Shown here: positions 25,661-48,288 of the stretch, in pieces
Layout of the letters: each line of letters opens with the position of its first letter
Numbering within the stretch: the stretch's first letter is position 1
Assembly (NCBI GenBank): GCA_963662405.2
Contig: CAXXKT010000001.1
Span: 1,440,001-1,504,000, forward strand
Direction: 5' to 3'
Length of the DNA: 64,000 nucleotides
Source: Syntrophales bacterium
GTDB lineage: Bacteria; Desulfobacterota; Syntrophia; Syntrophales; UBA2210
The notes under the pieces: model-generated
What the model saw: the letters and a program-made list of their open reading frames with translations, nothing else
Database searches by the model: none
Told to the model about the DNA's origin: nothing
Position numbers and translations under genes: made by a program

Positions 25661-27337
<1,677 letters not shown>

Positions 27338-27628
27338 TTATTTTTCGATTATTCCGAGTATGTCGTCTTCGCGCATAATAAGGTGCTCGACGTCGTCTAT
27401 CTTGACTTCCGTTCCCGCGTACTTGCTGAACAGCACCCGATCGCCGGCCTTCACATCCATTTTGATGATCTTGCCGTCATCCGTCTTTTTACCGCCGCCA
27501 ACGGCGATCACTTCACCCTCCATCGGCTTTTCCTTTGCGCTGTCGGGAATGATGATTCCCCCCTTTGTCGTTTCCTCCTCTTCGAGGCGCTTCACGATAA
27601 TCCTGTCATGCAATGGTCGTATCTTCAT
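27338..27628 (-). CDS. groS: Co-chaperonin GroES
   Basis: [28 protein letters not shown] motifs. Confidence 0.99.
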
Positions 27629-27724
27629 GCTTCCTACTCTCCTCCTTACAATTAATTATTTTTCAAGGTAAATATCCTTGCAGGAATCTCAACACTTCAT
27701 AAAATAAACATCAATCCAATCCTG

Positions 27725-28339
27725 TCAAGGGGCGCTCCTCTTTTTTATCTCCACGGGGACTTCGCACAGGTCTTTGAAACGTCGGGCGTCCTCCACGGAA
27801 CCGACGATGTCGTCGTAGTGGATGGGGATCGCCGTTCCGGGGCGTACGATATTCACCGCGCGGGCGGCCTCCTCAGCGGTCATCGTGTAGGTCCCGCCGA
27901 CGGGAACCAACATGATATCCGCCTGGATCGTTTTCATCTCGGGGATCAGGTCGGTGTCCCCACAGTAGTAGATCCTCGTTCCCTGTACCGTCACCACAAA
28001 CCCGAGCCAGCCGTTTTCGCGGGGATGAAAGTCTTTGTCCGTATTATAAGAAGGGACCGCCTCAACCGACACCTTTCCGATTTGTACGACGTCTCCCGGC
28101 TTGACGATCCGAAGATTTCCCGAAAGGACGGCGGCGCTTTCCCGGGTGGTGACGATCACGGTATCCGCCTTCCGGATTTTTTCGACATCCTCCACCGAGA
28201 GATGATCATAGTGGCTGTGACTGATCAGGATCAGGTCCGCCTTCATAGGGTCCTTGAGCTTCCAGGGATCGATATAGATCACCTTTTCTCCCTCGATCCT
28301 CACGCTTGAATGACCGAGCCAGACGATGTCCTCTACCAT
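27725..28339 (-). CDS. MBL-fold metallo-hydrolase (UPF0173/UlaG-like)
   Basis: WLGHS, YIDP, SHSHYDH, GDTD, PVGGTYTM, IPIHY motifs. Confidence 0.85.
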   Translation of the reverse strand: MVEDIVWLGHSSVRIEGEKVIYIDPWKLKDPMKADLILISHSHYDHLSVEDVEKIRKADTVIVTTRESAAVLSGNLRIVKPGDVVQIGKVSVEAVPSYNTDKDFHPRENGWLGFVVTVQGTRIYYCGDTDLIPEMKTIQADIMLVPVGGTYTMTAEEAARAVNIVRPGTAIPIHYDDIVGSVEDARRFKDLCEVPVEIKKRSAP

Positions 28340-28399
28340 GACACACCTCCTCATTATGCTTCGGGTTTTGTGTTATACGACTTCTCTATCGGCAGGTGG

Positions 28400-30007
28400 C
28401 TACCGTTTCCCGATATGCAGGATGCCCTTGGTGATATTGCACAGGTGATCGTTGAGTCGGTCGATGGCCGTCAGGACATCCGAATAGACGAGACCGGCAT
28501 CGCTCATACACTCACCCTTCCCCAGCCTCTCGATATGATTTGAACGATATTGCTTGACCAGGGCGTGAGCCTCCCGATCGATATTCAGCGTAATGGCGGC
28601 TGCCTGGTGGTCGTCCTTTTCGAGGGCCTTCTTGGTCTGTCGCATCAGGGCGCGTGCCTTCTCGAACAGTTTTGCCAGTTCCATGTGCGCGGGAGCGGAA
28701 AATTTCAGGTCATGTTCATATCCCCGTTGCGACAGCTTCACGATGCTCTCGCAGTAATCCCCCACCCGCTCGAGGTCATTTACGCTGTGAAGAAGAGCAG
28801 GAACCAGGCTGCGTTCCTTGTCGGTCAGCTCCCCCTTGGTGACCTCGATCAGATACTGGGTGATGTTCCGCTGCATCTCGTCGACCGATTCTTCATCGAG
28901 GGTAATCTCATTCTTGATCCTGTGGTTGTACGTAGCGATACACTCCTCCGCCTTCTCAAACATCTCCTGGCAGAGGGTCAACATGGAGACCATCTCCTTG
29001 ATGGCCGCGTCGATCGCGAGGTTCGGGGTGATGAAGAGGTTCGAATCGAGATGCTTTGCCTCCTTCTTTTCGTAGTCCCGTCCGGGGATCACCCGCTCCA
29101 GAAGCTTCACCAACAGGGGGGTCATCGGCAGGAAGATGAGGGCGTTGATCACGTTGAACACCGTATGGGAGTTGGCGATTTGCCGGGCAATATCCCCCGA
29201 GGTCAGGGGAATGAACTGGAGGTAGAATGGGACCAGGGGGAGCATGATCAGGGCCCCCGTTATGTTGAAGACGGTATGCCCGAGAGCGAGCCTCCTGCTG
29301 GAGAGATTTCCTCCGATACTGGCGATCCCTGCGGTTACGCAGGTGCCGATATTGACCCCGAAGATCAGGTATACGGATGATGTGAGATCCAGAAGTCCGA
29401 CGGAAGCAAAGGCGATGATCATACCGGTGGTCGTGCTGCTGCTCTGGAGGATGGCTGTGGCTACCAATCCCGTCAGGATCCCGAGGAGGGGACTGGTGCC
29501 AAAGGTGACAAAGGCGCCTTTGATCATCTCGTTGTCCGCCAGGGGTTTGACCGACGAACTCATCATCGCGAGCCCCAGGAACAAGAGACCGAACCCGAGG
29601 AGCGCCCGCCCCTTGTTTTTGTGCTTGTCCTTCTTTGCAGCGAGGGCGGTTACGGCGCCGACGAAGACGAAGAGGGGGGCGACCGCCGTGAACTTGAAGG
29701 CGATCAGCTGCGCGGTCACCGTTGTTCCCACATTGGCACCGATCATGATCGCAATGGCCCCCGCCAAGGGGATAAAACCGGCATTGAGGAATCCGATGAC
29801 GATGACCGAGGTCGCGCTCGAGCTTTGTATGATTGCGGTGACGAATGCCCCCATGCTCGCCGATCTGAGTTTCCCCGAGGTCATCTTCTCGAGCATTGTC
29901 TTGAGGAGTCCCAAGGACAGCCGCTTCAGCGAGTCGCTCAGGAGATACATGCCGAAGACGAACAGACCCAGTCCTCCGATCACACCTGAGATAATCTTAA
30001 AATCCAT
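28400..30007 (-). CDS. Na+/Pi cotransporter with PhoU-like C-terminal domain
   Basis: Duplicated QSSS motifs, GANVGTT / GVNIGT, DLERVGD. Confidence 0.92.
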   Translation of the reverse strand: MDFKIISGVIGGLGLFVFGMYLLSDSLKRLSLGLLKTMLEKMTSGKLRSASMGAFVTAIIQSSSATSVIVIGFLNAGFIPLAGAIAIMIGANVGTTVTAQLIAFKFTAVAPLFVFVGAVTALAAKKDKHKNKGRALLGFGLLFLGLAMMSSSVKPLADNEMIKGAFVTFGTSPLLGILTGLVATAILQSSSTTTGMIIAFASVGLLDLTSSVYLIFGVNIGTCVTAGIASIGGNLSSRRLALGHTVFNITGALIMLPLVPFYLQFIPLTSGDIARQIANSHTVFNVINALIFLPMTPLLVKLLERVIPGRDYEKKEAKHLDSNLFITPNLAIDAAIKEMVSMLTLCQEMFEKAEECIATYNHRIKNEITLDEESVDEMQRNITQYLIEVTKGELTDKERSLVPALLHSVNDLERVGDYCESIVKLSQRGYEHDLKFSAPAHMELAKLFEKARALMRQTKKALEKDDHQAAAITLNIDREAHALVKQYRSNHIERLGKGECMSDAGLVYSDVLTAIDRLNDHLCNITKGILHIGKR

Positions 30008-30093
30008 CTGATCTCCTCTGTAGGCATCGACGTATGGTTCCGGGGTTGATCACCGCTCCCCGCATAGCGAAAAGAGTCCTCCCCTCCCAAAAC

Positions 30094-30111
30094 GTGACAT
30101 GTATATTACAC
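30094..30111 (-). promoter_or_regulatory. Pho-box-like 11-bp-period direct repeat
   Basis: GTGTAAT-ATAC-ATGTCAC versus the PhoB consensus CTGTCAT-N4-CTGTCAY, about 90 bp upstream of the Na/Pi transporter. Confidence 0.35.
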
Positions 30112-30161
30112 CGTATCAAAAAGTCAAGACATTCACTGGTCGCTCATCGTAACACCGCACT

Positions 30162-30178
30162 CGCACTGTACATGCCAA
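30162..30178 (-). promoter_or_regulatory. Candidate sigma54 -24/-12 promoter facing the Na/Pi transporter
   Basis: TTGGCATGTACAGTGCG (GG-N10-GC). Confidence 0.45.
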
Positions 30179-30603
30179 GAATCCACGACGGTACCGGTCT
30201 TACCTTGCAGTCCCCGGGCAAGGGGCGACAGTGCGACTGACGACCGCGCTTAAACCTGCCGAGGTTACGAACAATAGAGAGCATAGCATCCGTGGGAGGT
30301 GAACGGACCGGAGCGCCTTTGCCCAGAATGATCGCATGGCCTGAGACGATTCGGTATCGGATGGCGGGGCAGCGGAACCGTTGCGCATGGAGAAAACGAT
30401 AACCAAGAAGGCGGGAGATATGACGGGAAACACCGCATGATAACGGGTGCAGACCACCCGCGTGTCAACCGTTCGGATTGATCGGGACAGGAAAAGAGGA
30501 TCGCCACGACGCCGGTTTTTTGCCCCGCAGACGTTTAATGCAGAACATTGCTTCATGGCGTCAGGATACCGGCCCGGCAGGGCAGAGGATGAGACCTCCT
30601 CTC

Positions 30604-32028
30604 TTACGGATTTGTGTCTCCGGTATCTCCTTTGTCACCTCCGCATATCTTGATGCTGTATTTATTTATCAGTTTATAGAAATTTGTTCGTTGCATGCCT
30701 ACGGCACTGGCGGCACGGCTGACGTTCCATTTATGGGCGGTGAGCGCGTTGATGACGAATTCTTTTTCCAACTCGACGATGGCTTGATCGCGGAGCTGTT
30801 TCTTCAGGCGTTTCAGGTCATTCACATCTTCAGGCTTCGCGATTTCCGAATGAAGCCCGGATATCCCGTCAGGAAGATCATGTAACTGGATTTCCGGATC
30901 ATCTGCGTGAATAAGGGCTCTCTCCACGGTATTTTCCAGTTCGCGGACATTTCCCGGCCATCCATAAGCGAGGATGCATTTCATGGCCTCCTCCGAAATG
31001 CCACATCGAGAAGACGGATTTCGCTCGGCGTATTTATTGAGGAAATGATCAATCAGGAGGGGAATGTCCTCTTTCCGCTCCCTGAGAGGCGGAAGGAAGA
31101 TGGGGAATACGTAGAGACGGTAAAAGAGGTCTTCCCGAAAGGCCCCCGTCTCGACCATCTTTTTCAGATTCTTATTCGTGGCGGTCACAAGTCGTATATC
31201 CGTTGCTTTTGCCTCCGTACCACCGACGGGGGTATATTTCCGTTCCTGAATGACCCGCAGGAGCTTTCCCTGGAGGTCGAAATTCAAATCGCCGATTTCG
31301 TCCAGAAAAAGCGTACCATGGTTGGCGACCTCGAAAAAGCCCGCCTTATTTGACATCGCCCCGGTAAAGGATCCTTTTACGTGACCGAACAATTCGCTCT
31401 CCAAAAGGGAGGAGGTCAAAGAGAGACAATCCACCGTGACAAAGCGGCTGTCCTTGCGTGCACTGTTTTTATGGATGGAACGGGCCACGAGTTCCTTACC
31501 CGTTCCCGATTCACCAATGATAAGGACGGTCGTACTCGTAGCAGCCACCTTGGTGACGAGCCTGAAGATTTCCATCATGCGCGGGCTGTTGGCGATGATG
31601 TTATCAAAAATCATTTCATGGGGCAGGGCTTGATCCGAGGTGTAGGGAGCCAACATCCGCCCCTTCTCTTCGAGGGCTTTTTTAACGGTCAGGATAAGCT
31701 CCGATGGTGTGAAGGGTTTGGAGAGATAATCAAAAGCCCCGCTTTTGATGCTTTCCACCGCCGTATTGATGGAAGCGTAGCCCGTGATAACGATGGTCTG
31801 TGTTGATGGATACCGTTCTTTTATGATCTCTATGAGATCGGTTCCGCAACGTCCCGGCATCACGAGATCGACCGTTACTACGTCGAACAGTTGTTTCTCG
31901 AGTTTCGCGACGGCCTCATCGACATTCATGGCGCCTTCGACACGGTATCCTTGGCTGGTGAGGGTCCTTCGGCAGGCCTCTTGTACCACTTCTTCATCGT
32001 CAACAATCAGAATATTAATGTCTTCCAT
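30604..32028 (-). CDS. NtrC-family sigma54-dependent response regulator (REC-AAA+-HTH)
   Basis: IVDDE...DLVMPG receiver, GESGTGKE, ELFGH.KGSFTGA, FLDEIG, FREDLFYRL, WPGNVRELEN, Fis-type HTH. Confidence 0.95.
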   Translation of the reverse strand: MEDINILIVDDEEVVQEACRRTLTSQGYRVEGAMNVDEAVAKLEKQLFDVVTVDLVMPGRCGTDLIEIIKERYPSTQTIVITGYASINTAVESIKSGAFDYLSKPFTPSELILTVKKALEEKGRMLAPYTSDQALPHEMIFDNIIANSPRMMEIFRLVTKVAATSTTVLIIGESGTGKELVARSIHKNSARKDSRFVTVDCLSLTSSLLESELFGHVKGSFTGAMSNKAGFFEVANHGTLFLDEIGDLNFDLQGKLLRVIQERKYTPVGGTEAKATDIRLVTATNKNLKKMVETGAFREDLFYRLYVFPIFLPPLRERKEDIPLLIDHFLNKYAERNPSSRCGISEEAMKCILAYGWPGNVRELENTVERALIHADDPEIQLHDLPDGISGLHSEIAKPEDVNDLKRLKKQLRDQAIVELEKEFVINALTAHKWNVSRAASAVGMQRTNFYKLINKYSIKICGGDKGDTGDTNP

Positions 32029-32052
32029 TACATGCCTCCCAGCCCTCCTGCC

Positions 32053-33429
32053 CTATTGGACGGGTAATCGAACACTAAAGACGGCCCCCATGCCCTCATG
32101 GCTTTCCGCGATCAATTTACCCCCGTGGTTTTCAATGATACCCAGGCTGATGCTCAAGCCCAAACCGGTTCCCATATCTTTTGTCGTATAAAAGGGATCA
32201 AAAATCTTTTGAATTTCATTTTGACTGATCCCCGGACCCGTGTCTTCAAAGACGATGTCCAGCACGCGCCGCTGTTCGTGGTAAATCGCACTGATCCTGA
32301 GCATGCCGCCTTCAACCATGGCTTGCTGGGCATTGACAATGAGGTTCATAAAAACCTGTTGCATCTGATCCTCATCAAATAAAATCTTAGGGAGATTATC
32401 GCGAATGTCCTTGATAAATTTGATGTTACGGAAGTCCTTGTGATAGGCAACCAGGCTGATTGTCTTATTGAGCACGGCGATGATATCGTGACATTTCTTT
32501 TCAGGCTGGCTTTGCCGGGCAAAATCCAAAAGCCCCTTGATGATCTTCTTGCATCGTTCTGTTTCCCGAATGACAATGTCGATATCCTTTTGGACCTGCT
32601 CTTGATCCGCGCATTCCTCTTTAATGAAGTGAGAGAAGTTGAGAATACCGGTGAGGGGGCTGTTAAGCTCATGGGCAATTCCGGCGGAAAGATTCCCTAA
32701 AGAAGCCAGCTTTTCACTTTGGATCAGCAGATTCTGCTGTCGCACCAACTCCTCGTTTGCCTCTTCGAGCTCCGTGCCTTTTTTGTCCAGTTGCAGCGTT
32801 AAATCAAAGAGATCCTGACCGCGACGGTGAAGACTCCGGGAGATGGAGCTGGTCATGTAAACCGTCAGGAGGATGATGGTCGTGAACGAGGCCATGACCG
32901 TAATGAGACGTGGTGTATTGTGCCAAAGCTCGATGGCGGTAAGCCCGTCAATGCGGTAATGCGGAATGATGCCGAACCAGGAAAGACCTACCAAAACGCT
33001 GACGAGCAGGAAACAGACGATGGCCTGATACCAGATATCGCGACCGGTCAAGAAGATGCTTCCCAGAACCATGTGAAAGACGGAAAAAAAGAGGAATGGA
33101 TTTTCGAGCCCACCGCTGAAATAAACCATAAAAATCAACGCCAGAAGATCGAGACCGATCTGCAGGTTTGCCTCAATGCGGAGGGATTTGGCTGATGGCT
33201 TGTATCGTGAAAAAAACCCCTTGTGAAGCAGGTAAAAGAAACAATTGTACAGCAGGACCATCCCGGCGATCAGCAGGATCGGGAACAACGGCAATTTGAA
33301 ATGGAACCCCTTGATGGCAAAAAAGAGCAACAGGGTCAAGACGAGTAAAAAAACCCATCTGAGCTGAACACACCATCCCAAACGTGCCTGTAATTCATCT
33401 TCCGAGGGCTTATAAATGGGCATAACCAT
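32053..33429 (-). CDS. Membrane sensor histidine kinase with RegB/PrrB-like transmembrane domain
   Basis: About 6 TMs with LRW and SGGLENPF. EKLASLG..SAGIAHELNSPL H-box, N/G1/F/G2 boxes. Confidence 0.9.
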   Translation of the reverse strand: MVMPIYKPSEDELQARLGWCVQLRWVFLLVLTLLLFFAIKGFHFKLPLFPILLIAGMVLLYNCFFYLLHKGFFSRYKPSAKSLRIEANLQIGLDLLALIFMVYFSGGLENPFLFFSVFHMVLGSIFLTGRDIWYQAIVCFLLVSVLVGLSWFGIIPHYRIDGLTAIELWHNTPRLITVMASFTTIILLTVYMTSSISRSLHRRGQDLFDLTLQLDKKGTELEEANEELVRQQNLLIQSEKLASLGNLSAGIAHELNSPLTGILNFSHFIKEECADQEQVQKDIDIVIRETERCKKIIKGLLDFARQSQPEKKCHDIIAVLNKTISLVAYHKDFRNIKFIKDIRDNLPKILFDEDQMQQVFMNLIVNAQQAMVEGGMLRISAIYHEQRRVLDIVFEDTGPGISQNEIQKIFDPFYTTKDMGTGLGLSISLGIIENHGGKLIAESHEGMGAVFSVRLPVQ

Positions 33430-33476
33430 CCCCTTCTAACTCCTTCCTATAAGAGATACCCGATGATGTCAACTGC

Positions 33477-33495
33477 TGTATACGGCAGATATACA
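33477..33495. promoter_or_regulatory. Palindromic site TGTATA-N7-TATACA, copy 1 (candidate enhancer/UAS)
   Basis: TGTATAcggcagaTATACA. Confidence 0.55.
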
Positions 33496-33593
33496 ATCGT
33501 GGCGGGGCACGTGGGGGTGCTTTGGGGAGAGGTATTCCTTAATGCTATATATAAACAATGAGTTGGCATGGTTCGGCGGCGAGGTAATAGATC

Positions 33594-33620
33594 GTATTGT
33601 ATAAATAAAATATACAATAC
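33594..33620. promoter_or_regulatory. Palindromic site TGTATA-N7-TATACA, copy 2 (extended 10-bp perfect inverted repeat)
   Basis: GTATTGTATA-aataaaa-TATACAATAC, about 105 bp upstream of the sigma54-like promoter. Confidence 0.65.
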
Positions 33621-33723
33621 ATCCCCCCCCGGAACCCCGCCGCAGACTCGCATAGAAACAAATTTACAATATATCTTCAATTATAACAGGACATTGCACT
33701 TTTTTACCGGGATCGAATTTCTC

Positions 33724-33740
33724 CTGGCACATTCGTTGAT
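33724..33740 (+). promoter_or_regulatory. Candidate sigma54 promoter
   Basis: CTGGCACATTCGTTGAT: perfect -24 TGGCAC; -12 TTGA instead of TTGC. Confidence 0.6.
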
Positions 33741-33776
33741 ATGAATAAAGTCAAAAATCAGAAGGAGGACCGAGAA

Positions 33777-34262
33777 ATGAACGAACTGAAACGAGCAATT
33801 GGTTATGTCTGTGATATCCCCGTGACCGGAACGAATATGATCATCGGCAAGGAAGATCAGCGTATGCGCCTGATCAAGTACGCCGAGAAAGAAAACATCG
33901 AATTGGTCCATATTTTTGAGGATAATGCGTATACGGAGGATTTCATGAATCGTCCCGGTCTGCAAAAGGTCCTTACCATGCTTCACGAATATGACACGGT
34001 ATTGGTCGAACGTGCCTGGGTCTTGACCACAAGGAAAAAGGACCTGATGCCGTTCCTGGAGATGATTGAATCCAAGCAAACCAGGCTTGTGGCGACGGCC
34101 TATCTGTGGGATTGCCTGCACCAGATACTTCGTCGCCGTTATGCCGATACGCTCGGATTCAAACCGGCCGGGATTATGGAAAAGACACGTTACAATATCC
34201 TGGAGATGAACCCGAGACAAATGGACGAGGTTGTCTGTACCCAAGATGCCAGTGTGGCCTGA
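33777..34262 (+). CDS. Serine recombinase/resolvase-fold protein lacking the catalytic residues and DNA-binding domain
   Basis: AIGY, Q...L..YA, IELVHIFED, RPGLQKVL, DTVLV pattern of the resolvase N-domain. YxRxS replaced by YVCDI and DRLxR by WVLTT. Strong SD AAGGAGG. Confidence 0.75.
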   Translation: MNELKRAIGYVCDIPVTGTNMIIGKEDQRMRLIKYAEKENIELVHIFEDNAYTEDFMNRPGLQKVLTMLHEYDTVLVERAWVLTTRKKDLMPFLEMIESKQTRLVATAYLWDCLHQILRRRYADTLGFKPAGIMEKTRYNILEMNPRQMDEVVCTQDASVA

Positions 34263-34415
34263 GAAGATCAGGTATTGACCGGCAAAACGCTGGTGCTCCG
34301 GTGGACTGCTCAGAAGAGAAGGAGGAGAGATAGCGCAAGACGGAAGCGAATAAAGCGTGTGAACCGCCACACGGCAATGAACGGCACAAAGAGAAGGCGT
34401 CGTTCGGTCGCTTGC

Positions 34416-34447
34416 GAGATGGGGACCATCTCACCCCCTTTCTTTTT
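34416..34447 (+). terminator. Possible terminator after the recombinase-like gene
   Basis: GAGATGG-gga-CCATCTC followed by a pyrimidine/T run. Confidence 0.4.
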
Positions 34448-34546
34448 CAGCGTGACACCTTCCCGTGAGGCGGCACTGTGTCCACAATCCCTTGCTGGAG
34501 TCGGATACAGCGATCAGAAGAGAAAGTCATAAGGAGAACGTGACAA

Positions 34547-35962
34547 ATGGAACAGTTGAACAGAACGAGATACGGGGGAAAGCTGAGGACCGCCGAGGCG
34601 GTGGCCCGGATGATCACGTCCGGCGACCGGATCTTCTTTTCCGAATTTGTCCTCCGACCCGAATCATTTGATACGGCCCTCGCCGATCGTGCCGATGAAC
34701 TGACAAATGTTACCATAGAAGGTTTATGTATTGCCAAGGTTCCCCATTTTATCGAGGCAGACCCGAAACGGCGGCACTTTATTTACAATGACTGGCACTT
34801 TTCCGGGGTGAGCAGGAGACTGTACCGGCAGGGTCTGTGCAGCTACATTCCCCTTACCTATCACCAGGGACCCCGGATCATTCGGAAATACAAGGAGTAT
34901 GATTTCGTGGTGGTGAGCGCGCGGCCCATGGACGGGCAGGGATATTTCAACTACGGCGTCTCCAACTCCCTCACCTCGGCGGCCATTACCAAGGCCAGGA
35001 AGGTCATCGTCGAGATCAACGAGAGCATGCCCCACTGCCTCGGGGGCAATCAGGAATCGGTGCACGTATCGCGGGTCGATTATATCATCGAGGGGAACAA
35101 TCCCCCGATGATCGAGATTCCCCCTGCCCAACCCTCGGAGACGGACACCCTGATCGCCCGGCACATCATGACGGAGATCGAAGACGGGGCCTGCCTCCAA
35201 CTCGGCATCGGCGGTCTGCCCAACGTCATCGGTGCCATGATTGCGGAGAGCGACCTGAAGGACCTGGGGATCCACACGGAGATGCTGGTTGATTCCATGG
35301 TGGACCTCTACGAGGCCGGGAAGATCACGGGGAACCGGAAGACGGCGGACCGTTTCAAGATGGTCTATACCTTTGCCATGGGGACCGGCAAGCTCTATGA
35401 GTTCCTGCACCACAATCCGGCCTGCGCCTCGTACCCGGTGAACTACACCAACGATCCCCGGGTGATGTCCTTCAACAGCAAGGTGACGGCCGTCAACAAC
35501 GCCATCGAGGTGGACCTGTTCAGTCAGGTCTGCTCCGAATCCGTCGGGACCTCCCAGATTTCCGGGACGGGGGGACAGTTCGACCTTATCTTCGGTGCCT
35601 TCAATTCGCGGGGCGGCAAGGGGATCATCGGCCTGAGCTCGACGTTCCAGGACAAGGACGGAAATGTTCACTCGCGGATCGTCCCCACGCTCCGGCCGGG
35701 TTCCATCGTCACCGTTCCCCGATCCTGCGTGCAGTACATCGCCACCGAGTACGGGATTGTCCAGCTCAAGGGGAAATCGACATGGGAGCGTGCGGAGGCG
35801 CTGATCAGTATCGCCCATCCCCGGTTTCGTGACGACCTCATGAAACAGGCGCGGGAGATGAAGATCTGGCTCGATCGTGCTGATGACCAGAATCGATATA
35901 GTTTTGACCCTCACGTTACAGACCGCTCTTCCAATTCTGTTGAAGTAACCTGTTCATTGTGA
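34547..35962 (+). CDS. Acetyl-CoA hydrolase/transferase family; butyryl-CoA:acetate or 4-hydroxybutyrate CoA-transferase-like
   Basis: CLQLGIGG.P, GIHTEM catalytic Glu, SGTGGQ.D, ATEYG, IAHP.FR motifs. Confidence 0.9.
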   Translation: MEQLNRTRYGGKLRTAEAVARMITSGDRIFFSEFVLRPESFDTALADRADELTNVTIEGLCIAKVPHFIEADPKRRHFIYNDWHFSGVSRRLYRQGLCSYIPLTYHQGPRIIRKYKEYDFVVVSARPMDGQGYFNYGVSNSLTSAAITKARKVIVEINESMPHCLGGNQESVHVSRVDYIIEGNNPPMIEIPPAQPSETDTLIARHIMTEIEDGACLQLGIGGLPNVIGAMIAESDLKDLGIHTEMLVDSMVDLYEAGKITGNRKTADRFKMVYTFAMGTGKLYEFLHHNPACASYPVNYTNDPRVMSFNSKVTAVNNAIEVDLFSQVCSESVGTSQISGTGGQFDLIFGAFNSRGGKGIIGLSSTFQDKDGNVHSRIVPTLRPGSIVTVPRSCVQYIATEYGIVQLKGKSTWERAEALISIAHPRFRDDLMKQAREMKIWLDRADDQNRYSFDPHVTDRSSNSVEVTCSL

Positions 35963-36001
35963 TAGAGATCCAGCAATTTCATCGCGGTAGTGGAGAGGTA
36001 T

Positions 36002-37462
36002 ATGGAAGGAAACTTGGGGAAGATGCTGGTGAATACGCGAGCTGCTTGTGCGGATCGGGTATCCCTTATATATAAGGATACGATCGTTTCCTATGCTGAA
36101 CTGGACCAAGCGGTCAATGCCTTTGGTAGCCGGTTGCGAGCCCTTGGCGTAACCAAGGGGGACCGGGTGGCGATCATGCTTCCCAATATACCGGAATTTG
36201 TCGTGGCTTACTTTGCCGCGTTGAAACTTGGCGCCACGGCGGTGACCATCAATGTCATGTCGACCCCCTACGAGCTTCTCTATCTTCTCGGTAACTGCGA
36301 GGCAAAGGTTTGTATCACCGTCCCTTCGTCGGCAAAACGGTTCCAAGAGATACGAAAACAGCTGCCGCAACTCGAGCACCTGATCACGACCGACGAGACC
36401 GCCGGCACTCTCTCCATAGATGAATCACTGGAAAGAGAACCCCACACGCTTGAGATGCCGGAGATCATGGGTGAGGAGCCCGCCGTGATGATCTATACCT
36501 CAGGACTGACGGGGAAACCGCTCGGTGCCGTCCTGACCCACCACAATCTCTCTACCCAAGCTTCCCTCCTGGAGGAGGTCTTGAACGGAACACCGGACGA
36601 CAGGGGTTTGTGCCTCATCCCTCTCTTTCATTCTTTCGGTGCCGTAGCCAATATGCTGATGGTCCTGAAGACGGGGGCCAGTGTCGTTATGCTCGATCAG
36701 TTCAATCTTGAGGCCCTCTTCAAGACGGTAGAGGAACAGAAGGTTTCTTATATCGCCGCCGTCCCGAGGGTTTTCCTGGGGATGCTCCTCTATGAGGGGG
36801 CGGACCGATACGACATGAATTCTCTGCGGTTTTGCATCACCGGCGGTTCGGCGATGCCGCCGGAATACATCCCGATGTTCGAAAAAAAGTTCGGGGTTAT
36901 CCTGTTTCAGGGATATGGGCTGACGGAGGCATCCCCCGTTTGCTCGGTCAACAGGGTCGACCGCGTGCAAAAAGTCGGCTCTATCGGAACGCCGATACCC
37001 GGTGTCGAGGCGCGAGTCATGAACGGCAGCGAATCTTCCCTGGCGGCGGAGGAGATAGGAGAGCTTGTCATCCGCGGCCCCAATGTTATGAAGAGTTATT
37101 ACCGCAATGATGAGGCAACCGCCGAGGTGATCCACGACGGGTGGCTCCACACCGGGGATCTGGCTCGGATCGATGAAGATGGGTATATCTTCCTCGAAGG
37201 GCGCAAAAAACGGATGATTATCACCAGCGGATTCAATGTATATCCCGCCGAGATCGAAAACGTCCTCAGGATGCACCCGGCCGTCATGGACGCACGGATC
37301 ATCGGTCAGGAGAATCTCATGCGAGGAGAGATCGTCAAGGCCCTTATCGTAAAAAAAGAGGGGTTTTCTCTCAATAAAACTGATATTACTAAGCACTGTA
37401 GGACATATCTTTCTTCATACAAATCTCCCCGGGAGGTGGAGTTTGTAGAGAGACTTGATTAA
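36002..37462 (+). CDS. Acyl-CoA synthetase / fatty-acid-CoA ligase (AMP-forming)
   Basis: YTSGLTGKP, QGYGLTEASP, GWLHTGD, GFNVYPAEIE. Alternative GTG start at 35990. Confidence 0.9.
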   Translation: MEGNLGKMLVNTRAACADRVSLIYKDTIVSYAELDQAVNAFGSRLRALGVTKGDRVAIMLPNIPEFVVAYFAALKLGATAVTINVMSTPYELLYLLGNCEAKVCITVPSSAKRFQEIRKQLPQLEHLITTDETAGTLSIDESLEREPHTLEMPEIMGEEPAVMIYTSGLTGKPLGAVLTHHNLSTQASLLEEVLNGTPDDRGLCLIPLFHSFGAVANMLMVLKTGASVVMLDQFNLEALFKTVEEQKVSYIAAVPRVFLGMLLYEGADRYDMNSLRFCITGGSAMPPEYIPMFEKKFGVILFQGYGLTEASPVCSVNRVDRVQKVGSIGTPIPGVEARVMNGSESSLAAEEIGELVIRGPNVMKSYYRNDEATAEVIHDGWLHTGDLARIDEDGYIFLEGRKKRMIITSGFNVYPAEIENVLRMHPAVMDARIIGQENLMRGEIVKALIVKKEGFSLNKTDITKHCRTYLSSYKSPREVEFVERLD

Positions 37463-37513
37463 ACAAGAACAGCAAATCCTCCCTGACAGACGCGTGACGA
37501 AAGGAGACGTAAC

Positions 37514-38809
37514 ATGCGAGAAGTGGTTATCGTAAACGGAGCACGGACCGCCGTCGGCACATTCGGTGGGTCCCTCAAGGATGTACGGTGTGTTGATCTC
37601 GGTTCCCTGGTTATCAAAGAGGCGATCAAGAGGGCTGGTCTCAGGCCGACTATTTCCGATTTTATAAAATCATGCCGTGCGGATGCCTTCGGAGAATTCG
37701 AAAAGACACCGATAAATGAAAAACATTATGATTATGACAATTCTCTGATCCCTACATACTTTGATGAATGTATCATGGGGAACGTTTTGCAGGGTGGTCA
37801 GGGGCAGAACCCCGGACGTCAGGCGGCCATCTATGCCGGGTTGCCCGAGGAAACAACCGCGATCACGGTCAACAAGATCTGTGCGTCGGGGATGAAGGCG
37901 ATTGCCCTGGGTGCCCAGGCGATCAAGGCGGGAGATGCGGATATCGTCGTTGCCGGCGGTATGGAGTCGATGAGTCAGGCACCGTACGGCCTCCCGAAGG
38001 CCCGGTGGGGGTATCGGATGGATATGCCCTTCGGTCAGATCACCGATATCATGGTCCATGACGGCCTCTACGAGATCTTCAACAAGTACCACATGGGATT
38101 TACCGCCGAGAACATTGCCGCACTCTATGGGATTACCCGCGAGGAGCAAGATGAACTCGGTCTTCTCAGCCATGAGAGAGCCCGGGCGGCGATTGCCCGG
38201 GGTGAGTTTGTGGATGAGATCGTCCCGGTCGTCATGCCGCAGCGCAAAGGTGACCCGAAGGTCTTTGATGTTGACGAACGTCCCATGGACACAACCCTGG
38301 AGAAGATGGCCAAACTGGCTCCCGTCTTCACCAAGGACGGAAAGGGAACGGTCACTGCCGGGAATGCCTCCGGGATCAACGATGCCGCTGCGGCCGTTGT
38401 CTTGATGAGCGCCGAAAAGGCCCGGGAGATGGGTCTCAAACCCTTGGCAAAGATCAAGGGATACGCGTCGGGCGGCGTGGATACCGCCTATATGGGCCTG
38501 GGTCCCATCCCCGCTACCCGGAAGGTCATGCATCAGTTGGGGCTGACGGTCAAGGATATGGACTACATCGAACTGAATGAGGCATTCGCCTGCCAGGCGA
38601 TCGCCTGCATGCGCGAACTGGGGATCGGCCTCGACAATTGCAACCTCAATGGGAGCGGGATCTCCATCGGGCATCCCATCGGCTGCACCGGGGCGCGGAT
38701 TACCTACAGCCTCGCCATGCAGATGCAGAAGAAAGACCTCAATCTCGGGCTGGCCACGCTCTGCATCGGGGGAGGCCAAGGGATGGCAATGGTCCTCGAA
38801 CGGGTATAG
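37514..38809 (+). CDS. Acetyl-CoA C-acetyltransferase (thiolase)
   Basis: [24 protein letters not shown] catalytic motifs. Confidence 0.95.
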
Positions 38810-38836
38810 ACTCAACTACGCAAAGGAGAACGAGAG

Positions 38837-39694
38837 ATGGAAGTGAAAACATTCGGCGTCATCGGTGCCGGTCAGATGGGGAACGGGATCGCCCAGGTCG
38901 TTGCGCATCAGGGTGGGCTGAAGGTCATCATGAACGATATCGCAGATGAATTCGTCGAGAGAGGCTATGCAGCCATTGCGAAACGTCTCGACGGGATGGT
39001 CGCCAAGGAGCGGATTACTAAGGAGAACAAGGAAGAGATCCTCAGCCGGATCACGAAGAGTACCAATCTTGAAGATATGAAAGGGGCCGATTTCGTCGTG
39101 GAGGCGGCCACCGAGCGGGAAGACCTGAAACTCGATATTTTCAGAAAACTGGATGGAATCTGCGCCCCCGGGGTTATCCTCGCATCCAACACCTCCTCGA
39201 TCCCGATTACGCGGATAGCGAGCGTGACGAAGAGACCGGAGAAGATTATCGGGATGCACTTTATGAATCCCGTTCCCGCAATGAAACTGATAGAGGTCAT
39301 CCGCGGATTGGCTACGGAACCGGCGACCTTTGACCTGACGGAACAATTGGCCCGGCAGTTCGGCAAGACCCCTGTCGAGTGCAATGACTTCCCCGGCTTT
39401 ATCCTGAACCGGATCCTGATCTCGATGATCAATGAAGGGATCTATACCCTCTATGAGGGCGTGGGAAGCGCCGAGGCGATTGACAGTATGATGAAACTGG
39501 GGGCCAATCACCCCATGGGGCCGCTGGAATTGGCAGATCTCGTTGGCCTCGATGTCTGTCTCGCGATTATGGAGACGCTCTACACGGGACTGGGGGATCC
39601 CAAATATCGTCCGTGCCCGCTCCTCAAGAAATATGTCGCTGCGGGCTTTTTGGGAAGAAAAACGGGGAGGGGTTTTTATAACTACCCCGGCTGA
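38837..39694 (+). CDS. hbd: 3-hydroxybutyryl-CoA dehydrogenase
   Basis: GAGQMG.GIAQ, SNTSS, GMHFMNP, HPMGP..LAD..GLD motifs. Confidence 0.93.
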
Positions 39695-39744
39695 TCGGTT
39701 TGAGCAATCAGCCCAATATAGAGTAGTAGGAAGGAAGAAGCACT

Positions 39745-40893
39745 ATGAATTTTCAGCCAACGGAAGAACAACAGATGGTCAAGGAGATGGTGGCACGGTT
39801 TGTCAATGAAGAGATCAAACCGAAGGCCGAGGAGTTTGACCGAACACACGAGCACCCGCAGGAAGTCGTCCGGAAGCTCGGTGAAATGGGACTAATGGGT
39901 GTTGCAGTTCCCACCGAGTACGACGGCGCCGGTATGGATAACGTCACCTACGTTATGGCCCTGATCGAAATTTCGCGTGGCTGCGCGAGCTGCGGTGTCA
40001 TTACCTCCGTGAACAATTCGCTCTACGGTTATCCTGTTAAAACCTTTGGGACGGATGAACAGAAAAAGAAATTTCTTGCGCCGGTGGCGGGAGGACTGGT
40101 TGAGGGATGCTATGCCCTGACCGAATCGGGCGCAGGGTCGGATGCCGCTGGACTGAGGTGCCGGGCCGAACTCAAAGGCGATAAGTACATCGTCAACGGC
40201 GTCAAGAAATTCATTACCAGCGGCAACGTCGCCGATTACTGCGTGCTGGCGGCAACGGAAGATCCTGCCAAAGGGTACAAGGGCGTTATAAACCTCATCG
40301 TGGATTTGAAGAACACCCCCGGGTTCTCCGTCGGCACCATTGAGGATAAGATGGGCATCCTCGCATCCGGTACGGCGGAACTCGTTTTTGAGGACGCCGA
40401 GGTCCCCGCCGAAAATCTCCTGGGCAAACCCGGAGAGGGATTCAAGCAGATGCTGATGGGACTCGATGCCGGGCGAATCGGCATCGGAGCGCAGGCCTGC
40501 GGTATCGGAAAGGCCGTTCTGGAAGACTCGCTTGCCTACGCACAGGAGCGAGAGCAGTTCGGAAAACCGATCACCTCCTTCCAGGCGATTCAGTGGAAGT
40601 TGGCCGATATGGCAACGGAGATCGATGCTGCGGAAATGCTTTTACTCAAGGCCGCCTGGCTCGAGGACAACGGTCTCGATTTTGAGAAGGAAGCGGCTAT
40701 GGCGAAGATGTACGCCTCCGATGTGACCATGAGAGCCGCCGTAGAAGGTGTTCAGATCTTTGGTGGTTACGGTTACTGTAAGGATTATCCGGCGGAGCGA
40801 CACATGCGGGATGCCAAGATCTGCCAGATCTACGAAGGCACCAACGAAGTGCAACGAATGGTTGTCGCCCGAAAGCTGTTGGGCGCTCGATAA
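39745..40893 (+). CDS. Acyl-CoA dehydrogenase (short/medium chain, butyryl-CoA dehydrogenase-like)
   Basis: ALTESGAGSD, NG.K.FITSG, REQFGK, QIFGGYGY, IYEGTNEVQR motifs. Confidence 0.93.
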   Translation: MNFQPTEEQQMVKEMVARFVNEEIKPKAEEFDRTHEHPQEVVRKLGEMGLMGVAVPTEYDGAGMDNVTYVMALIEISRGCASCGVITSVNNSLYGYPVKTFGTDEQKKKFLAPVAGGLVEGCYALTESGAGSDAAGLRCRAELKGDKYIVNGVKKFITSGNVADYCVLAATEDPAKGYKGVINLIVDLKNTPGFSVGTIEDKMGILASGTAELVFEDAEVPAENLLGKPGEGFKQMLMGLDAGRIGIGAQACGIGKAVLEDSLAYAQEREQFGKPITSFQAIQWKLADMATEIDAAEMLLLKAAWLEDNGLDFEKEAAMAKMYASDVTMRAAVEGVQIFGGYGYCKDYPAERHMRDAKICQIYEGTNEVQRMVVARKLLGAR

Positions 40894-40929
40894 CTGGATT
40901 AAAAATAGGACTCTTTCCGGGAGGGCACC

Positions 40930-42618
40930 ATGTTGGAGCTGAACCGTCTTGCACAATATGAAGGGGTAAAAGGCCCGTTACTCCTGATTATCCTGGACGG
41001 TGTGGGGCTGTACCGGGGAGAGGAGGATGGCTATCCGGGCAATGCCGTCGATATGGCGGCTCCACCTACTCTGTGCCGCCTGATGAGGGAAGAACGTATC
41101 GTCCTCCGTCTCAAGGCGCACGGAGTCGCGGTGGGGATGCCGACCGACGCGGATCAGGGAAACAGCGAGATCGGTCACAATGCCATGGGGGCGGGGCGGG
41201 TCGTTGCGCAGGGGGCAAAGCTGGTCGATGAGGCCATCGAGACCGGTCGTCTCTTTGAAGGGGAAACCTGGAAGTCTCTGATCGACAATGCCCGGACGAA
41301 GCACACCCCGATTCACTTTATCGGCCTCATATCCGACGGGAATGTCCATAGCAACATCGCTCATCTGATTGCCCTGATCGGCCGGTGCGACCGGGAGGGT
41401 GTGGAAGAGGTCTATATCCACGGGCTCCTCGACGGACGGGATGTCCCCCCCATAAGCGCTTTGCGCTACTTCGGTGAGCTGGAGGACTATCTCTGGTCAT
41501 TACGGGCGCAGGCCTCTGAACAGGGGACTCGGCGCCGTTACTGTGTCGCCTCCGGGGGCGGCCGGATGGTGACCACCATGGATCGTTACGAGGCGGACTG
41601 GTCGATTGTCGAGCGGGGATATCGCGCCCATGTCCTGGGTGAGGGACCTCGATTCCCCGACTGCCTCACCGCCATTCGAACCTTGCGCGAGCAGGAGCGG
41701 GAGGACGATCAGTACCTTTCTCACTGGGTCGTTCATGATCCGGACGATCCGGCGGTTTCCCTCACGCGGATCGGAGACGGACACGGCGTTGTCCTGTTCA
41801 ACTTCCGGGGGGATCGGGCCATCGAGATCAGCCGTGCCTTTGTGGAAGACGACTTTGCCGGATTCCACCGTCAAAATCATCCTGCCGTCTTCTATGCCGG
41901 GATACTCGAATATGACGAGGATACCCATATGCCCCCCCACTTTCTCGTCTCTCCTCCCGAGATAGATCGAACGGTCTCGGAGTACCTGGCACGCAACGGT
42001 GTTTCGCAGTATGCCGTCAGCGAAACGCAAAAGTTCGGGCACGTGACCTATTTCTGGAACGGGAACAACTCCACCAAGTTTGATTCGAAGACGGAGGAGT
42101 GGGTGGAGATCGAATCCGATCGTCTCCCCTTCGACCAGGCGCCGCAGATGAAGGCCGACGAGATTGCCTCCCATGCCATCGCGGCACTCCAAGCCGGGAC
42201 GTACCGCTTTATTCGCCTGAACTTTCCCAATGGGGACATGGTGGGACACACGGGGTCGCTCCCCGCGGCGATGGAGGCCGTCAGGGCCGTCGATCGGGCG
42301 GTGAAAAGGATCATAGACGCGGCCGACGCAGTTGGCGCAACGGTAATCATAACGGCCGACCATGGAAACTGTGAGCAGATGTACGCCGTTGATGGGAAGA
42401 CGGGGAGACCCGTCATGGGACCCGGCGGGGAGTACCAGCCGCAGACGAGCCACACACTCAACCCGGTTCCTTTCATTATCCATGGGCCCGATACGGGGCG
42501 GTATGAATGTACCGATATCGCAGAACCGGGGCTGGCCAACATTGCCGGCACGCTCCTTTTTCTCCTTGGTTATGAAAGGCCGGACGATTACCTCGAACCG
42601 CTCATCCGGGTCGTCTGA
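40930..42618 (+). CDS. gpmI: 2,3-bisphosphoglycerate-independent phosphoglycerate mutase
   Basis: ILDGVG, GNSEIGH, DGNVHS, DGRD, NFRGDR, DMVGHTG, TADHGN, SHT.NPVP motifs. Confidence 0.95.
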   Translation: MLELNRLAQYEGVKGPLLLIILDGVGLYRGEEDGYPGNAVDMAAPPTLCRLMREERIVLRLKAHGVAVGMPTDADQGNSEIGHNAMGAGRVVAQGAKLVDEAIETGRLFEGETWKSLIDNARTKHTPIHFIGLISDGNVHSNIAHLIALIGRCDREGVEEVYIHGLLDGRDVPPISALRYFGELEDYLWSLRAQASEQGTRRRYCVASGGGRMVTTMDRYEADWSIVERGYRAHVLGEGPRFPDCLTAIRTLREQEREDDQYLSHWVVHDPDDPAVSLTRIGDGHGVVLFNFRGDRAIEISRAFVEDDFAGFHRQNHPAVFYAGILEYDEDTHMPPHFLVSPPEIDRTVSEYLARNGVSQYAVSETQKFGHVTYFWNGNNSTKFDSKTEEWVEIESDRLPFDQAPQMKADEIASHAIAALQAGTYRFIRLNFPNGDMVGHTGSLPAAMEAVRAVDRAVKRIIDAADAVGATVIITADHGNCEQMYAVDGKTGRPVMGPGGEYQPQTSHTLNPVPFIIHGPDTGRYECTDIAEPGLANIAGTLLFLLGYERPDDYLEPLIRVV

Positions 42619-47108: not shown

Positions 47109-47245
47109 AATGTTATCGCCTCCATATAGGAATTTCAGATTTCTAACCCTGCTGGTTTCCTAAAAGGTGAGGGGGTCTTACTACTCCTCATTCTTTTACA
47201 AAGCCAAAAGGATCAAAGATCACTGTAACGCTCGGATTGGTGTTC

Positions 47246-47279
47246 AAAAAAGTGGGGGTGGATATGATATCCACCCCCA
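47246..47279 (-). terminator. Intrinsic terminator between etfA and EMO
   Basis: TGGGGGTGGATA-tga-TATCCACCCCCA with a U-tract on the minus strand. Confidence 0.7.
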
Positions 47280-47288
47280 TATTGCCTA

Positions 47289-48263: not shown

Positions 48264-48288
48264 TTTTTTATCCTCCTCTTCCCTCCGG

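Follow-up and report, generated by a model that had tools for sequence, protein, structure and literature searches.

What does a protein with the fold of a serine recombinase, stripped of its catalytic residues, do as the first gene behind a sigma-54-type promoter that faces a two-component pair? The question is raised by a locus in a Syntrophales bacterium (assembly GCA_963662405.2, contig CAXXKT010000001.1, positions 1,440,001 to 1,504,000; this 64,000-nucleotide stretch is called the window, and coordinates refer to it unless a locus or genome is named). The protein, here termed dRes (161 residues, 33777–34262, plus strand, C-terminus SVA), is catalytically dead, and the genes facing it encode an NtrC-type sigma-54 enhancer-binding response regulator and a RegB-like membrane histidine kinase. 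Together they look like a circuit of a known type arranged around a protein family of possibly new function.

Anatomy and co-conservation of the module

On the minus strand, the regulator (474 residues, 30604–32028, assigned by Pfam) and the kinase (458 residues, 32053–33429) face dRes across an intergenic region that holds two exact copies of a TGTATA-N7-TATACA palindrome, both putative activator sites. The distal copy, TGTATAcggcagaTATACA (33477–33495), lies 48 bp from the kinase start codon, and the proximal copy, TGTATAaataaaaTATACA (33598–33616), has the -24 element of a predicted sigma-54 -24/-12 promoter, TGGCACattcgTTGA (33725–33739, plus strand), 127 bp downstream. A Shine-Dalgarno sequence, GGAGG (33764–33768, plus strand, read from the sequence), precedes ATG 33777 by 8 nt. 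A longer open reading frame (ORF) begins at ATG 33741, two bases past the promoter end at 33739; given this promoter end, the position of GGAGG and homologues that begin at the second Met, ATG 33777 was taken as the start. The GC content is 0.44–0.52 over 30500–34250 vs 0.53–0.61 in the flanks. An earlier note, made from the letters of the window, had described an AT-rich cassette in which a minus-strand kinase and an NtrC-type activator face a small gene, and ORFs, domain assignments and GC content all agreed with that description. The palindrome pair with identical cores, the -24/-12 promoter and the Shine-Dalgarno sequence were likewise all located in the intergenic region.

This arrangement recurs in relatives. 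A word-indexed protein search returned 21 relatives among 28 candidates, all of 134–183 residues, and the locus sample comprised 11 and 44 loci from scans of genome and metagenome contigs and three from genomes of the same order. These 58 loci gave 61 gene arrays (50 non-redundant), onto which the window proteins were mapped by tblastn and whose upstream DNA was scored. A TGGCA[CT]-N5-T[TC]G-N element was present, at -52 to -95 relative to the start codon of dRes, in 40/46 non-redundant arrays whose upstream sequence was 120 bp or longer, and at least one TGTATN-N7-NATAC[AG] palindrome in 35/40 of those with at least 345 bp (two in 16/40). Outside these upstream regions, each motif was matched six times in 736,880 nt. 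Spacing was also conserved: the two palindromes lie 111–125 bp apart in 15/15 cases, the proximal one lies 105–130 bp from the -24 element in 26/33 non-redundant loci, and relatives again have a distal one, roughly at -300 to -335 with respect to dRes. Where a non-redundant array had 1.9 kb or more of upstream sequence, a divergent kinase stood within 1 kb in 22/28 cases; the exceptions were L009, L027, the first copy in L028, L051, L069 and L070. The divergent two-component pair, the palindrome and the TGGCAC-N5-TTG element, whose joint conservation the earlier note had proposed as a check, are thus co-conserved with dRes. The strict promoter was absent from both arrays of L028 (G219:C1:897000-916999), a locus in which near-identical dRes copies, each with a palindrome, lie on both sides of the kinase/regulator pair, one of them followed by CoA-transferase and acyl-CoA dehydrogenase genes.

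Across the order, a dRes profile matched 12/301 genomes at E ≤ 1e-5, with true members (E ≤ 3e-50) in four: the host (G000), G025, G219 (two copies) and G263. The eight weaker loci are ordinary recombinases with the R-V-S motif. The kinase query matched 230/301 genomes at E ≤ 1e-40. In exactly the four dRes genomes the match ran over the full length, membrane domain included (62–100% identity); the others, among the matches listed, cover the kinase core alone at no more than 47% identity. Two of the eight searched genomes of the host's own genus (G000 and G025) hold the module. Judged by these patterns of presence, the module is a unit inherited together, with a patchy distribution. In the congeneric genome (L027, G025:C1:1668000-1686000), dRes lies with its promoter and palindrome directly behind yidC-jag-mnmE, and an insertion-sequence (IS)-type integrase gene (HTH_23/rve_3) and an acyl-CoA ligase gene stand between it and a convergent regulator and kinase; the module has therefore been rearranged within the genus.

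The regulator carries Response_reg (PF00072), Sigma54_activat (PF00158, E = 8.6e-67), AAA_lid_14 (PF25601) and Fis-type HTH_8 (PF02954) domains, with GSFTGA, at residue 219, as the loop that contacts sigma-54. It has, in other words, the receiver, the sigma-54 AAA+ domain with a GAFTGA-type loop and the Fis-type helix-turn-helix of the NtrC family. The best NCBIfam matches were AtoC, NtrC and ZraR, all under cut-off, and since no equivalog cut-off was reached the regulator is not AtoC, NtrC or ZraR itself. Its orthologues adjoin the kinase in the related loci, at 60–87% identity. TGTATA-N7-TATACA occurs in the window as just the two copies, even with up to two mismatches allowed, and the exact palindrome occurs twice in the entire 3,796,170-bp genome, both times at this locus; the genome's six looser palindromes elsewhere have no -24/-12-like element within 400 bp. 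Similarly, TGGCACATTCGTTGA at 33725–33739 is the single exact TGGCAY-N5-TTGM match within the window, and neither a palindrome nor an exact -24/-12 site lies near the EMO/ETF region of the window (44973–49050). The regulator would bind the two palindromes, and by motif this promoter would be its sole target in the host genome, in keeping with the dedicated circuit that the earlier note had supposed. An IHF-like site (WATCAA-N4-TTR) stands 43 bp upstream of the -24 element in 8/39 distinct promoter regions of relatives (for example L002, L005, L052, L056, L058, L059, L066 and L072) and at -81 in one more (9/39 overall); by strict consensus the promoter region of the window has none.

The kinase has six hydrophobic segments followed by HisKA and HATPase_c domains, with His253 in its H-box. 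GGLENPF occupies residues 106–112, between hydrophobic segments three and four, and GG[IL]ENPF is kept in 25/26 full-length orthologues, which agrees with the RegB quinone motif reported earlier for this kinase. A Cys 40 residues beyond the His (Cys293 in the window kinase) is kept in 26/26. Within the first transmembrane segment (TM1), Arg16 and Arg24 are invariant; the conserved TM1 residues of RegB are Arg31 and Gln38. The phospho-His of RegB is presumably residue 225. In the excerpted text of PMC3000548, GGXXNPF in the TM3-TM4 loop of RegB is the ubiquinone site (N110, F112), and Cys265, placed after the phosphorylation site and ahead of the kinase domain, is redox-active. Asn110 and Phe112 of the window kinase share these residue numbers; also in common with RegB/PrrB/ActS are its six hydrophobic segments and a conserved Cys that follows the phospho-His and precedes the ATPase domain. 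From these residues it is a reasonable inference that the kinase works like RegB, and it probably senses the redox state of the (mena)quinone pool. Membership of RegB itself is not established, with a model score under cut-off and an NtrC-type partner. The host is moreover anaerobic and presumably uses menaquinones, and the window regulon is, by motif, one promoter, whereas that of RegB-RegA is global.

A recombinase fold without the catalytic residues

Pfam matches dRes to Resolvase over profile positions 17–99 of 145 alone (E = 3.9e-8) and gives no helix-turn-helix or other DNA-binding domain beyond this partial hit. An AlphaFold2 (AF2) model from 21 homologues, with pLDDT of about 85–95 in the core and mean pLDDT of 79–95 per ten-residue block over residues 1–110, predicts an ordered core (1–125) and a disordered tail (126–161). 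The predicted order is strand 6–12, helix 25–38, strand 42–49, helix 60–67, strand 74–77, helix 87–99, strand 103–106 and helix 112–125. The best Foldseek matches were serine-recombinase catalytic domains (IS607-type TnpA, TP901-1 integrase, Sin and Bxb1; E ~1e-6), and the 30 PDB matches at E ≤ 1e-3 were, among the matches listed, of the serine-recombinase family or close relatives. By sequence, the best PDB match was TP901-1 integrase at E = 0.13, and the ESM Atlas returned solely clusters titled 'Resolvase N-terminal domain-containing'.

The dRes family was aligned with three true recombinases from same-order genomes, using catalytic residue numbers (Arg8, Ser10, Asp67, Arg68, Arg71) that we take to be those of gamma-delta resolvase. 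The GY-x-R-V-S of the enzymes reads GYVCDI in dRes, with Arg8 replaced by Cys12 and Ser10 by Ile14, and none of 21 family members has a Ser at the nucleophile position. LDRLSR reads (A/V)W(V/C/A)L(S/T)(R/T) in the family and AWVLTT in the window protein: Asp67 has become an invariant Trp81 and Arg68 a V, C or A. The Arg71 equivalent (Arg85) is kept in most members and is Thr in the window protein; Tyr10, Gln28, Asp49 and Arg59-Pro-Gly are retained as well. dRes thus lacks the Ser, the D67-R68 cluster and the DNA-binding domain of a functional serine recombinase and keeps the fold, including helix E. With the nucleophilic Ser, Arg8, Asp67 and Arg68 lost and no DNA-binding domain, dRes should be unable to recombine DNA. 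Foldseek and the alignment together bear out the resolvase fold without catalytic residues that had been read from the window. In comparison with serine recombinases (PF00239), dRes has the same catalytic-domain fold, helix E and the strand-1 Gly-Tyr. It differs in its new invariant motifs (GYVCDIP, ERxW and YLWD), in having no flanking repeats, and in being chromosomal, behind a sigma-54-type promoter and under purifying selection. Two other assignments were considered and dropped by eye: a beta-carbonic-anhydrase-like zinc site, since His is lacking and only one Cys is conserved, and a low-molecular-weight phosphatase loop, since the Cys is not followed by an Arg.

More than 20 positions are invariant across 20–21 dRes sequences, and 60 distinct unfused proteins have an intact frame and a conserved length. 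dN/dS was 0.09–0.14 in five main-clade pairs, and the full range of 0.09–0.35 points to purifying selection and not to the neutral evolution that the earlier note had held out as a refutation.

Genes behind dRes, its copies and its C-terminus

The next gene, 80–200 bp after dRes, encodes an EMO/HdrD-like membrane Fe-S oxidoreductase in 27/42 non-redundant arrays with downstream sequence. This protein of about 700 residues (NarI-like membrane domain, 2 × [4Fe-4S], 2 × CCG domains) shares its domain set with the window's ETF-linked EMO (ETF:menaquinone oxidoreductase), and DsrMK is, with EMO and HdrD, among its closest known comparisons. However, the dRes-linked proteins form a separate subfamily, 59–83% identical mutually and 37–39% identical to the window's EMO, with no adjacent ETF genes and with an Ala-Ala terminus. 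No conserved gene was found behind them. CoA-transferase and beta-oxidation genes follow dRes in 4/42 arrays, all of the window clade; the order of these genes is the same as in the window in L030–L032 and partly so in L028. The remaining 11/42 arrays have other genes or nothing recognisable behind dRes. The link to quinone-coupled fatty-acid oxidation that had been proposed for the window was strengthened by the EMO-like gene behind dRes in most relatives. Elsewhere in the host genome, outside the window, a CCG-domain homologue (G000:C1:1623221-1624177) spans one in-frame TAG in a six-frame search and could be a pseudogene, two genes or a case of recoding.

In the window itself the cassette abuts a beta-oxidation cluster, as had been noted. 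This comprises plus-strand genes for a butyryl-CoA:acetate CoA-transferase-like protein (34547–35962), an acyl-CoA ligase (35990–37462), a thiolase (37514–38809), a 3-hydroxyacyl-CoA dehydrogenase (38837–39694) and an acyl-CoA dehydrogenase (39745–40893), all assigned by Pfam and NCBIfam and all probable co-regulated cargo. Further downstream, as context outside the module, minus-strand genes encode the EMO-type NarI/4Fe-4S/CCG oxidoreductase (44973–47108), ETF alpha (47289–48263) and ETF beta (48289–49050).

Between dRes and the CoA-transferase gene lies a plus-strand spacer (34263–34546). L032 is syntenic with 26549–41486 of the window at 80–84% nucleotide identity and has its CoA-transferase gene 48 bp after dRes; about 270 bp (34263–34532) that are present in the window and absent from L032 constitute a lineage-specific insert. 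This stretch has no second copy in the genome, an Rfam scan of 29900–34700 gave no match, no sigma-70-like promoter was found in 33400–34650, and a consensus scan found no plus-strand terminator between 34262 and 34547. Folding of the whole spacer was not stronger than that of shuffled versions (z = -1.0). Visual inspection showed a 7-bp hairpin at 34416–34432, followed by ACCCCCTTTCTTTTT, with the T-run beginning 7 nt past the stem and the T-rich stretch extending to 34448. The likely terminator reported earlier behind dRes was therefore not upheld, the hairpin being rated a weak terminator or attenuator candidate. The single-gene output proposed with it needs correcting: with a beta-oxidation operon 48 bp after dRes in L032, the output is probably more than one terminated gene. 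On this synteny we lean slightly towards the beta-oxidation genes of the window being read through from the sigma-54 promoter.

On the other side of the module, TGGCATGTACAGTGC at 30163–30177 (minus strand) is a sigma-54-like site with one mismatch, pointing at a Na/Pi-cotransporter-PhoU gene (28400–30007, minus strand). The 597-bp gap between that gene and the regulator (30008–30603), about 260 bp longer than in L032, contains only ORFs without family matches.

dRes is frequently duplicated. The 50 arrays have one copy in 33 cases, two in 15 and three in two, and where copies stand in tandem, the first and the second are separate paralogues, each conserved. In a divergent clade, one ORF contains two fused dRes domains (L011:1689-2774, L070:6878-7963) or three (L010:3711-5219, L069:2492-4000), as also seen in P0024 and P0022. 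This clade reads AIAYTADI in place of AIGYVCDIP, without the Cys, and still stands behind TGGCA-N5-TTGC and TGTATA-N7-TATACA. The ancient tandem paralogues and the fusions point to hetero-oligomers, as expected for a recombinase fold. No longer fused homologues were found at E ≤ 1e-10, which is weak evidence, since a later profile search of 1.84 billion cluster representatives did find fusions. By that search the family is small (536 proteins at E ≤ 1e-3, of which 61 reached 1e-10 and 14 reached 1e-30) and includes six 50%-cluster representatives of 260–312 residues with an N-terminal Response_reg domain followed by dRes (P0045, P0060, P0061, P0070, P0072 and P0076), titled 'CheY-like' or 'response regulator' where named. 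These fusions indicate that the dead-resolvase domain serves as a response-regulator output.

The C-terminus of dRes is also conserved. Among 60 distinct unfused proteins, 58 end in Ala (46 AA, eight VA, three MA). The tail ahead of this terminus varies, and main-clade members have it rich in Lys, Arg and Ala. The terminal dipeptide is coded by all four Ala codons and followed by any of the three stop codons, so selection on it acts at the protein level. The Response_reg-dRes fusions lack the Ala-Ala terminus, which would fit two alternative routes by which the domain is made signal-dependent. Ala-Ala is likewise the terminus of each of the 11 aligned EMO-like proteins linked to dRes (LAA, IAA, EAA or AAA; e.g. 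L037:7516-9633, L006:6976-9105 and L062:7491-9614), compared with 0/6 unlinked EMO homologues (the window's own and five from G025, G219 and G263). Across all sampled sequence, 24/282 ORFs of at least 200 residues end in Ala-Ala, 20 of them in dRes operons. In several single-copy loci, the final three or four residues of dRes match those of the EMO-like neighbour (KEAA in L001, AAA in L037 and L039, EAA in L036). A pyridine nucleotide-disulfide oxidoreductase gene adjoins dRes in two further loci: in L047 a solitary sigma-54-type dRes (L047:901-1335) is followed 8 bp on by one encoding a protein that ends in VAA (1343–2767), and another (L011:2997-4634) adjoins the L011 fusion.

According to the excerpts of PMC7652416, ClpXP recognises the ssrA tag mainly through its terminal Ala-Ala, and similar Ala-Ala degrons target other cellular proteins. 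The transfer-messenger RNA (tmRNA) tag of the host is ADNYDYAVAA and clpX is present (643.9 bits vs a cut-off of 370.75). The conserved C-terminus of dRes may on these grounds be a degron, a proposal to which we give slightly less than even credence. Several distant members (P0028, P0030, P0033, P0037, P0049, P0071 and L010/L011/L067) carry a short C-terminal motif, approximately (R/K)(R/K)P(A/E)x(L/F)(H/Y)F, past a disordered linker, which looks like a docking peptide.

The proposed circuit and competing explanations of dRes

We propose that the RegB-like membrane kinase reads the (mena)quinone redox state through its GGxxNPF loop and the Cys at His+40 and would phosphorylate the NtrC-type enhancer-binding protein. 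The latter, bound to the TGTAT(A/C)-N7-(T/G)ATACA palindromes about 125 and 250 bp upstream, would activate the sigma-54 polymerase at TGGCAC-N5-TTGA. dRes would always be the first gene transcribed, and the genes behind it would encode enzymes that feed the quinone pool with electrons (EMO/HdrD-like in most loci, a short-chain beta-oxidation operon here). dRes itself would form oligomers and act, without enzymatic activity, in signalling or as an adaptor, in an amount that depends on sigma-54-dependent synthesis and on turnover through its conserved Ala-Ala/Val-Ala terminus, which resembles the ssrA degron. The logic of the circuit very probably holds, judging from the comparative evidence. 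For the whole explanation, with dRes as an adaptor, we see an even chance. Sequence comparison establishes the anatomy and its co-conservation, the lost catalytic residues, the purifying selection, the fusions to receivers and the conserved C-termini; quinone sensing, regulator binding at the palindromes, read-through into the beta-oxidation genes of the window, control by proteolysis and a target for dRes are inferred. The adaptor role is favoured because dRes is inherited with the sensor and not with any one enzyme, because of the receiver fusions, and because a globular oligomer with a flexible tail and a terminal peptide would suit it. That dRes is a regulatory or adaptor part rather than an enzyme subunit is evenly balanced.

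A number of observations weigh against this proposal. The -24 half of the promoter is perfect, but the -12 half reads TTGA where the consensus is TTGC. The kinase reached 113.7 bits against the ActS/PrrB/RegB model NF033792 (cut-off 350; alignment over residues 14–456), and its partner has a sigma-54 AAA+ domain and is not RegA-like; RegA-type regulators differ from NtrC-type ones in having no such domain. Ligand specificity is an extrapolation, as the host is probably a user of menaquinone rather than ubiquinone. dN/dS rises to 0.22–0.35 in five pairs with the faster-evolving window clade, and within the syntenic block no gene has diverged more than dRes (68% amino acid identity vs 81–99% for its neighbours in L031). 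The hairpin and T-run in the spacer could, weakly, end transcription after dRes. In 401 genomes of the phylum, a search for fusions of receiver and dRes gave receiver-domain matches only. With SVA in place of AA at its end and a non-basic tail (net -1), the window dRes is the copy for which the degron proposal is weakest. Finally, the EMO-like adjacency (27/42) and the near-invariant Cys12 fit an enzyme partner equally well.

This last explanation, that dRes partners disulfide-reductase-type enzymes, is unlikely in our estimation and is the most substantial competitor. dRes would then be an assembly or docking subunit of the EMO/HdrD-like protein or, by the analogy of DsrK and DsrC, a DsrC-like thiol substrate presenting Cys12 to the CCG domain in a quinone-coupled reaction. 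The EMO-like gene 80–200 bp behind dRes, Cys12 invariant in the 21- and 20-sequence alignments, the disulfide oxidoreductases adjoining dRes in L047 and L011, and the Ala-Ala terminus common to dRes and the linked EMO-like proteins (11/11 linked vs 0/6 unlinked) all speak for such a partnership. However, dRes, kinase and regulator persist in four genomes from the window's order that lack a linked EMO-like orthologue (best match 38–40% identity), and Cys12 is replaced in some second copies (by V in copy 2 of L062 and by S in copy 2 of L065) and is absent from the entire fused AYTAD clade and from the majority of distant members. Receiver fusions would be unexpected for an enzyme subunit, and dRes has no cofactor motif. 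A complex prediction of the L037 EMO-like protein with its dRes scored 0.00 against a mark of 0.32; controls were not run, and it gives no verdict.

Less likely still is that dRes acts as a second-tier DNA-binding regulator that binds without cutting, through helix E and a basic tail. Most response-regulator outputs bind DNA, and the receiver fusions would sit well with this. Helix E is kept (residues 112–125, with Q116, R119 and R121 conserved), as are the phosphate-contacting Y10, Q28, D49, R59 and mostly R85, and the main clade has the Lys/Arg/Ala-rich tail. dRes has, however, no helix-turn-helix or other DNA-binding domain, its tail in the window is acidic to neutral, and no second conserved operator was noticed in the promoter regions beyond the two palindromes. 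Isolated recombinase catalytic domains, moreover, bind DNA weakly.

We consider it doubtful that dRes is a feedback inhibitor of its own kinase or enhancer-binding protein, comparable to PspA-PspF or ZraP-ZraS, with the downstream enzymes as the only real outputs. dRes is always the first gene and strictly co-inherited with the kinase, the architecture is that of zraP-zraSR and pspF-pspA, ZraR/ZraS and AtoC/AtoS are among the best NCBIfam matches (all under cut-off), and in G263 the module persists without enzyme cargo. Against this, L009 and L051 hold extra sigma-54-type dRes arrays distant from any kinase or regulator, and the receiver fusions put dRes downstream of phosphorylation. The idea that dRes is a functionless, decaying relic of a mobile-element recombinase can appeal to the AT-rich cassette, the patchy occurrence (4/301 genomes) and the IS-type integrase gene adjoining dRes in G025, but it is excluded by the selection and co-conservation data: dN/dS of 0.09–0.35, more than 20 invariant positions, an intact frame in 60 proteins, a conserved sigma-54-type promoter and enhancer of its own, and tandem paralogues kept across lineages.

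Among known systems, the nearest architectures are ZraP-ZraSR and PspF-PspA(BC), in which a kinase or enhancer-binding protein is divergent from a sigma-54-type promoter with upstream palindromes and a small accessory protein comes first. dRes differs from ZraP and PspA in being cytoplasmic, of recombinase fold and unrelated to either. Within its coverage, from which most subscription journals are missing, the open literature yielded no account in which a sigma-54 target or a response-regulator output is a dead resolvase domain. A paper on the D. vulgaris sigma-54 regulome (PMC4641369) mentions neither resolvase, TGTAT nor quinone, and the excerpts of a review of recruited mobile elements (PMC8987985) deal with active serine invertases only. 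The sensor of the circuit resembles RegB/RegA and the architecture ZraPSR or PspF/PspA.

RssB, an adaptor for ClpXP, offers a lead only. Its PP2C domain is catalytically inactive, and it combines a receiver with a non-DNA-binding, enzyme-type fold, as the six receiver fusions of dRes would, although the fold is different. In the excerpts of PMC3877760 and PMC7226468, RssB is an atypical response-regulator adaptor with this domain at its C-terminus. By this comparison dRes might found a new class of output domain, an adaptor or anti-adaptor in regulated proteolysis that is either fused to a receiver or Ala-Ala-tailed and alone, which we regard as a long shot. If true, dRes would govern the lifetime of the Ala-Ala-tailed EMO-like oxidoreductase in the canonical operon, and a quinone-sensing kinase would determine how an electron-input enzyme of anaerobic fatty-acid oxidisers is both made and removed.

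Syntrophic and sulfate-reducing fatty-acid oxidisers live near the thermodynamic limit, and to our knowledge the regulation of electron entry from beta-oxidation into their menaquinone pool is essentially unknown. The locus offers a concrete, testable candidate for such a circuit, with a RegB-like sensor, a sigma-54 activator and its defined putative operator, a single predicted promoter, and EMO-like or beta-oxidation cargo. It also documents a rare event, the exaptation of a serine-recombinase catalytic domain as a non-catalytic protein that is conserved, duplicated, fused to receivers and marked by a conserved C-terminal dipeptide.

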